DNA from: Escherichia coli
GTDB lineage: Bacteria > Pseudomonadota > Gammaproteobacteria > Enterobacterales > Enterobacteriaceae
Length of the DNA stretch: 64,000 nt
NCBI RefSeq assembly: GCF_024298765.1
Contig: NZ_CP101210.1
Strand: one strand, 5' to 3'
The stretch's first letter is position 1, and each line of letters opens with the position of its first letter. The translations under genes were made by a program, and so were the position numbers. The notes beneath the pieces were generated by a model that saw only the letters and a list, made by a program, of their open reading frames with translations, was not told where the DNA came from and ran no database searches. This document shows, one piece after another, positions 3,152 to 3,713 of this stretch.

Positions 3152-3661
3152 AATTAATTTTCACCTATCCATGTTGATTATATTTCATTACCAACGTTAC
3201 TCGCTGTAGCGTGTTACATGCCAACAATTCAACGATCAATATATAGTTAGTATCATGTTTTTATTATTACAACCACCCCTATTTTGCCATTGCGGCTTGC
3301 CTTCCACAAAAAATAAAAACACAAAACATTAGCCAAAGAATTAATTAAGATTAACCTGACATTTTTAATGTTATCCCTAAAAAATATAATCAGGAGAATA
3401 TATTCGGTGTTAATCAGTCAGTCAAATTTTGGCTCATTGTTGATTAAACCTCATACGCAAAATTGGCACCAGACCTCCTGTACAGGTTGAATGGCTGGAA
3501 AAAGATAGGCAAAAAACTCTCCGCGCTGGCGGCATTACATTGGTCGCGTGCTATGACGAAAAATGCCTGGTAAAAGTATCTAAACCAGAATTAATTTCAG
3601 CTTATCAACACGCTCAAAGTCGCCCCCCAGAACGTTAACCTGAAGTGAAAGTCTTTGCTGT

Positions 3662-3697
3662 TAATGAAATAAAACAAAGCCCGGTTCGCCCGGGCTC
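3662..3697 (-). terminator. Rho-independent terminator downstream of phoH
   Basis: On the minus strand, hairpin AGCCCGG-GCGAA-CCGGGCT followed by TTGTTTTATTTCATT; 17 nt after the phoH stop. Confidence 0.65.
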
Positions 3698-3713
3698 TGC
3701 GCCGATAATACAC

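Follow-up and report, generated by a model that had tools for sequence, protein, structure and literature searches.

The spacer between phoH and the DUF2726 gene

In the 64,000-nt stretch of Escherichia coli DNA analysed here (contig NZ_CP101210.1 of assembly GCF_024298765.1, referred to as the window in the following), a 562-bp spacer at positions 3152-3713 separates phoH from a gene that encodes a DUF2726 domain-containing protein. Both genes have the same orientation, so that in the direction of transcription the spacer follows phoH and precedes the DUF2726 gene. It very probably represents the non-coding DNA of an accessory cassette of 1.2 kb, which replaces the dgcT-pgaABCD genes in ~19% of E. 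coli and also occurs in E. albertii; the spacer comprises a terminator, drifting DNA and a control region. Read along the minus strand from phoH to the DUF2726 gene, the order would be the terminator, ~260 bp of drifting DNA and ~250 bp of DUF2726 upstream region.

Population counts refer to 5,426 complete E. coli genomes, while the fine-scale comparison of the spacer covers 12 haplotypes, namely nine E. coli classes, one metagenomic contig, Escherichia sp. MOD1-EC7003 (EspMOD1) and E. albertii; H65, a garbled assembly region, was left out. The features of the locus are as follows, with minus-strand elements within the spacer given in either direction of their coordinates.

614-701: serX, a tRNA-Ser gene.
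2465-3151, minus strand: DUF2726 gene, 228 amino acids, N-terminal segment hydrophobic; makes up the coding portion of the cassette.
3152..3406, minus strand: upstream region of the DUF2726 gene, ~250 bp with ~33% guanine plus cytosine (GC).
3160..3191, minus strand: invariant block of 32 nt, GTAATGAAATATAATCAACATGGATAGGTGAA, identical in all 12 haplotypes including E. albertii.
3290..3263, minus strand: candidate sigma-70 promoter ATGGCA-16-(TGT)AATAAT, with consensus matches and a TG present.
3425..3397, minus strand: candidate sigma-70 promoter TTGACT-17-TATATT, 10 of 12 consensus matches.
3407..3670, plus strand: stretch of neutral evolution with relics of open reading frames (ORFs), GC ~45%.
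3407-3490, plus strand: 27-codon ORF starting with GTG, AGGAG located 10 nt before the GTG.
3444-3638, plus strand: 64-codon open frame, no start codon ahead of a TTG at 3540.
3661..3700, minus strand: intrinsic terminator of phoH, 11-bp stem with 7 G-C pairs, 5-nt loop, then a U tract.
3714-4502, minus strand: phoH, 262 amino acids (RefSeq annotation).

The spacer is 100% identical to the corresponding DNA of E. coli strain 104 (chicken, China), where the gene order is csg, ycdZYX, ghrA, serX, IS3, DUF2726 gene, spacer, phoH, efeBOU and putP. A sequence-only reading of the window had described the spacer as A/T-rich and free of ORFs of 60 amino acids or more, and both points are confirmed. 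GC amounts to 37.9%, compared with 51.9% for the whole window, and only 0.7% of all 562-bp segments across the 64 kb are as AT-rich; the segment with the lowest GC is the spacer region itself (start ~3116). Runs of at least 8 bases consisting of A and T only occur at 19.6 per kb, which is about eight times the 2.6 per kb of the window. This AT-richness is real but mostly confined to the left two thirds of the spacer, with 33.2% GC in 3152-3500 and 45.5% in 3501-3713. The longest ORF inside the spacer on both strands comprises 40 amino acids, while a mechanically called ORF of 63 amino acids (3635-3826, minus strand) spans the right edge and lies mostly within phoH in another frame. PGAP/RefSeq annotation places nothing within the spacer in any genome inspected.

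The product of 2465-3151 matches the Pfam family DUF2726 (PF10881; E-value 1.8e-18) and is annotated as a DUF2726 domain-containing protein, so that the label 'orphan', which this gene had been given from its sequence, has to be dropped. The gene has a GC of 43%, its protein cluster counts 2,055 members, and the literature, searched for DUF2726 and for the accession of the protein, yielded nothing about this locus.

Two alternative alleles between serX and phoH

The distribution of the spacer among E. coli genomes separates it into two parts. The 43 bp at 3671-3713 are the only part in common with pga-carrying E. coli and are matched in 5,359 of the 5,426 genomes, while the remainder is present in about 1,030-1,050 genomes (~19%), at a median of one place per genome. 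The pgaC gene is found in 4,382 genomes and the spacer in 1,051; their sum of 5,433 nearly equals 5,426, which means that the alleles essentially exclude each other and jointly cover all genomes. Identity with ordinary phoH-downstream DNA of pga-carrying strains, which would have spoken against the sequence-only reading by its own account, is limited to the last 43 bp. In the window, serX, ghrA, ycdXYZ and csg are present and both pga and dgcT are absent, which identifies the pga-less allele.

The cassette consists of the DUF2726 gene and its upstream DNA (~2461-3670) and is always located between serX and phoH. In K-12 and NRG 857C, alignment shows that the serX-phoH interval holds dgcT-pgaABCD instead and that the pgaD end adjoins the same 43 bp with the same hairpin. 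The right cassette junction is found at ~3667-3670, at the foot of the phoH terminator, and the left one just past the stop codon of the DUF2726 gene, at a hairpin (GGGGGG...CCCC) located behind the terminator repeat of serX. From these junctions at the two hairpins results a cassette size of ~1.2 kb, and both alleles are bounded identically by the two hairpins. Nine further E. coli genomes share this arrangement, as do Escherichia sp. MOD1-EC7003 and the type strain of E. albertii.

Within E. coli at least four classes of cassette haplotypes exist, with 100%, ~96%, ~90.6% and ~87% identity to the window. Compared with E. albertii, the window differs at 0.22 of the 4-fold-degenerate sites of the DUF2726 gene and at 0.25 of those of phoH; the cassette hence diverges in step with the flanking core gene, which marks it as an old resident of the genus, and the sequence comparison suggests that the two-allele state of the serX-phoH interval is an old polymorphism within Escherichia. 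The earlier description of the spacer as foreign DNA therefore holds in one respect only: the DNA is accessory and, apart from its last 43 bp, absent from pga strains, but it is old in the genus, as its presence in E. albertii and its phoH-like divergence indicate. In the plasmid collection, the three matches of the spacer proved to be mislabelled chromosome-sized records, and the phage collection returned no matches.

The absence of ycdT-pga between phoH and csgG from some E. coli strains has been reported for Tob1, Fec101 and B-8638 (PMC5635171), and it has been argued that the linkage of pga and phoH is ancestral in Enterobacteriaceae (PMC5464674). The window resembles the former strains in carrying a pga-less allele. 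However, absence alone is given in that report, whereas here the DUF2726 cassette that fills the gap is described with its boundaries, its frequency of ~19%, its haplotype classes and its occurrence in E. albertii.

Such an arrangement might also have arisen by deletion, and the sequence-only reading had allowed for a scar of deleted sequence. A scar of dgcT-pgaABCD would be in keeping with the position of the spacer in place of pga and with a plus-strand ORF relic where pgaD sits in K-12. Yet the best matches to the whole serX-phoH intervals of K-12 and NRG 857C, by blastn with a word size of 7 and by tblastx, reach E-values of 0.27-0.32, and the spacer is accompanied by a DUF2726 gene that is intact, under selection and missing from pga strains. 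Given this lack of similarity to the dgcT-pga interval, the spacer is not to be regarded as a deletion scar, and a derivation from pga is extremely improbable.

The composition of the spacer had furthermore been likened to xenogeneic DNA silenced by H-NS. The likeness comprises a GC of 33-38% in a background of 52%, dense A/T runs, a position upstream of an accessory gene and restriction to certain strains. Unlike such DNA, the spacer is not enriched in the high-affinity H-NS motif (Lang-type, TCGATAAATT): the scan, itself uninformative, gave one match with 2 mismatches in the spacer, and across the window the motif is not enriched either. The cassette is moreover a long-standing resident of the genus and no recent import. 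From its composition, such DNA would probably be bound by H-NS, and silencing would be plausible.

The terminator of phoH

At its phoH-proximal end, the spacer was expected to hold the phoH terminator, and this expectation is well founded. The hairpin (3700..3674, minus strand) has the sequence GCAGAGCCCGG-GCGAA-CCGGGCTTTGT, is followed by the run TTTATTTCAT and begins 13 nt past the phoH stop codon. The folding energy is -21.2 kcal/mol with a z-score of -3.09, a value reached by 2 of 200 shuffled sequences, and the hairpin is kept in both alleles as well as in E. albertii, its conservation among complete genomes being that of the 43 common bp. Sequence and conservation both identify 3700..3661 as a strong Rho-independent terminator, at which phoH transcripts would end. 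Compared with Rho-independent terminators of enterobacteria, the hairpin is typical and in no way unusual, and it accounts for only ~40 of the 562 bases.

The upstream region of the DUF2726 gene

At the opposite end of the spacer, the AT-rich ~250 bp between 3406 and 3152 would supply the promoter and the translation start signals of the DUF2726 gene. Six promoter-like sites were counted in the spacer where 2.3 are expected, and they occur on both strands. Most E. coli haplotypes retain the hexamer pairs of both minus-strand candidates listed above; in E. albertii the pairs are weakened.

In 3152-3406, function is indicated most clearly by the invariant block directly before the DUF2726 start codon, the one piece of the region that is under strong constraint. 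The block includes a perfect TATAAT (3182..3177) and the Shine-Dalgarno sequence AGGTGA (3166..3161), which is situated 9 nt before the ATG at 3151. Within the block 0-3 changes per 20 nt are counted, compared with 6-12 elsewhere in the spacer, and the surrounding DNA has accumulated ~0.38 changes per site. At the sequence level, this establishes constraint on the 32 nt, while promoter use within 3152-3406 would follow from the candidate sites. The earlier proposal that the spacer holds the promoter of the neighbouring gene is accordingly upheld as regards the presence of promoter-like sites and a conserved core. A sigma-54-like arrangement (TGGCATG-N4-ACGC, ~3205-3220, minus strand) had also been noticed by eye; it was rejected because neither EspMOD1 nor E. 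albertii preserves its GG and GC dinucleotides.

The drifting stretch and its broken frames

Between the terminator and the upstream region, ~260 bp (3670..3407) drift at a neutral rate, with broken frames on the strand opposite phoH and the DUF2726 gene. Differences among the haplotypes in this stretch comprise indels of 27 nt, of 8 nt and, several times, of 1 nt, as well as a TGA stop; the latter lies in frame in the commonest haplotype (CI5/O111 type, ~660 genomes). In none of the 12 haplotypes does an ORF run uninterrupted from start codon to distal stop, and the frame at 3444-3638 is stopped or frameshifted in the CI5 type, in EspMOD1 and in E. albertii.

The rate of substitution gives the same picture. 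Divergence in 3407-3670 amounts to ~9% from CI5 and ~23% from E. albertii, which equals the differences at 4-fold sites of phoH and the DUF2726 gene (5-9% and 22-25%, respectively), and a neutral rate is thereby demonstrated. Codon periodicity is absent from 3407-3670: changes are distributed over the three codon positions as 21/24/29, whereas the DUF2726 gene, which served as control and is under purifying selection, displays 24/9/42 differences from E. albertii. The ratio of non-synonymous to synonymous changes per site (pN/pS) within E. coli ranges from 0.63 to 0.68 and is the same as in control frames. In the 27-codon ORF, all seven changes relative to CI5 are non-synonymous.

Gene callers occasionally emit a 'hypothetical protein, partial' of 60-85 amino acids at 3407-3670 in Escherichia, and the 85-amino-acid versions (P0003 and P0006) form clusters of 1 and 4 sequences. 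Outside Escherichia, no homologues were retrieved when, after a word-indexed search, 1.84 billion representative proteins were searched with HMMER using the 85-amino-acid version. Other HMMER matches were dismissed, P0009 and P0013 as tandem-repeat artefacts, once their sequences had been read, and P0010 and P0011 as chimeric short calls. Pfam and PADLOC assigned no family to the ORF fragments or to the 85-amino-acid version. The 27-codon ORF with its AGGAG and the frame at 3444-3638, both on the plus strand, are the only ORF-like features of the spacer. A short peptide gene, one of the contents suggested for the spacer, is thus not borne out by frames that are broken in all 12 haplotypes, by the missing third-position excess and by the lack of relatives beyond the genus.

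In its neutral rate, frameshifts, premature stop, variable ends and partial-protein calls, the stretch resembles decayed unitary pseudogenes and spurious short ORFs. Unlike for unitary pseudogenes, no intact parent gene of 3407-3670 is known anywhere, and for this reason past coding of the stretch cannot be demonstrated. We infer that 3407-3670 has no detectable present function and would be either the remains of a small gene that died long ago or DNA without any coding past. It is improbable that 3407-3640 is the relic of an Escherichia-specific small gene that was divergent from the nuclease-like DUF2726 gene, is perhaps live in rare strains and formed a two-gene module with its neighbour in the past. 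If this were true, the module might have comprised, for example, an effector and a partner or immunity protein, the small partner having decayed in most lineages while the DUF2726 gene is still selected.

RNA in and beside the spacer

A small RNA had likewise been considered for the spacer. More broadly, the DNA could specify a small or antisense RNA, which would be read from the plus strand of the AT-rich region into the phoH 3' end, or the DUF2726 mRNA could have a long structured leader at its 5' end. Promoter-like sites on both strands are compatible with this, and a plus-strand transcript would meet no U tract after the hairpin and could run antisense to phoH, where the Rfam family Ysr251 matches. 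Against it, an Rfam scan of 2000-5200 with E-values up to 1 detected no family within 3152-3713, and RNAalifold on nine sequences gave a covariation term of +0.61, which means no support, with any double change in only 6 of 143 pairs. Single-sequence folding compared with shuffles was of ordinary stability (z-scores of -0.68 and +0.80), and the neutral rate with many indels speaks against the proposal, as does the position of the Ysr251 match outside the spacer. The small-RNA option consequently finds no backing in these comparisons, and a regulatory RNA of either kind has a small probability.

The Ysr251 match itself is full-length (3719-3912, plus strand; 192.8 bits, E-value 1e-53) and lies opposite the phoH 3' end. 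Ysr251 is a Yersinia RNA that is annotated as antisense, and the match may reflect nothing but the coding conservation of phoH. A GATAAT hexamer at 3704-3709 on the plus strand, in the right edge of the spacer, would put a start near 3716.

Observations in favour of other readings

Four observations weigh against an ordinary intergenic spacer composed of terminator, drifting DNA and control region. The first one concerns the control region, where the proximal TATAAT of the invariant block is accompanied by neither a recognisable -35 element nor an extended -10 element. The second and the third concern possible coding in the right half. Compared with E. albertii alone, the frame at 3444-3638 exhibits a synonymous excess (pN/pS 0.44, uncorrected p ~0.01), and the start and the frame of the 27-codon ORF persist throughout the 11 other haplotypes, with a loss of the stop in E. 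albertii alone. The synonymous excess fails correction for six frames and transition bias, and clearly non-coding control frames reach 0.5-0.6; it gives a faint hint of former coding at most. Retention of the 27-codon ORF is expected by chance at the low divergence involved (<=10%).

Both observations would nevertheless be accommodated by a live small protein divergent from the DUF2726 gene, of either 27 amino acids (the ORF at 3407-3490) or 85 amino acids. The AGGAG at a distance of 10 nt from the GTG, the presence of P0003 and P0006 in the protein collection and the divisibility of the 27-nt indel by three agree with such a protein. It is opposed by the fact that the start is joined to the long frame in none of the haplotypes, the commonest of which carries the in-frame TGA, and by the size of the 85-amino-acid clusters, which have 1 and 4 members compared with 2,055 for the DUF2726 protein. 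Along with the exclusively non-synonymous changes relative to CI5, the missing codon periodicity and the lack of homologues outside Escherichia and of Pfam or PADLOC matches, this renders a live small protein very unlikely.

The fourth observation is an inverted repeat of 16 nt (3178-3193 and 3659-3674), with arms that agree in 14 of 16 positions and enclose 465 nt; such a pair occurs in 1 of 60 composition-preserving shuffles. The repeat might bound a degenerate, non-autonomous mobile element, but the sequence is present as a single copy in the window and in the genomes (median 1), target-site duplications are missing, and neither plasmid nor phage copies were found. Moreover, the left arm is situated within the conserved core promoter block of the DUF2726 gene. 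In the commonest haplotype, the 8-nt deletion truncates the right arm, which in E. albertii matches at only 10 of 16 positions; on account of this truncation and degeneration, the repeat is probably due to chance, and a mobile element is highly improbable. The reading as the non-coding part of the cassette, with terminator, drifting DNA and control region, is therefore preferred.

Neighbouring features

Several further observations relate to the flanks of the cassette. Just after serX, a 181-nt unit is repeated 2.4 times with 98% identity (683-1108, and 746-882). Each copy consists of the tRNA 3' end and its terminator, and Rfam calls one of them RtT (46.3 bits); in other strains, 0-2 RtT units annotated as 'RtT sRNA' (small RNA) are located between serX and the DUF2726 gene. 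In the window, an IS3-family element with a programmed frameshift (~1159-2414) sits between the serX repeats and the DUF2726 gene, and it is absent from the same spot in SMS-3-5, CI5 and Ecol_316.

In O111:H8 strain 02-3334 (L005 1-6700) and in strain AH62 (L014 1-366), the DUF2726 gene has a tyrosine-integrase island on the side facing serX; in 02-3334 the island is placed just past two RtT-like units. Thus, serX is apparently an integration site in some strains. On the other side of phoH, sub-threshold matches to naRNA4 (REP-type, repetitive extragenic palindromic) at 4994-5120, between phoH and efeB, fit the REP95 reported there in K-12.

Implications for the serX-phoH locus

Taken together, the spacer is intergenic DNA of an ordinary kind that lies within a known polymorphism of gene presence and absence, in agreement with its empty RefSeq annotation. 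The chance is low that it contains something unusual, whether a regulatory RNA, a small protein that is still live or a former partner of the DUF2726 gene that has decayed, and the spacer is of little importance in itself. For the occasional 'hypothetical protein, partial' calls at this locus, the analysis advises caution. As a by-product, it describes the serX-phoH interval as a locus with two alleles, dgcT-pgaABCD in ~81% and the DUF2726 cassette in ~19% of complete E. coli genomes, a description that is useful for annotating the locus and for interpreting strains that are negative for PGA/PNAG (poly-N-acetylglucosamine).
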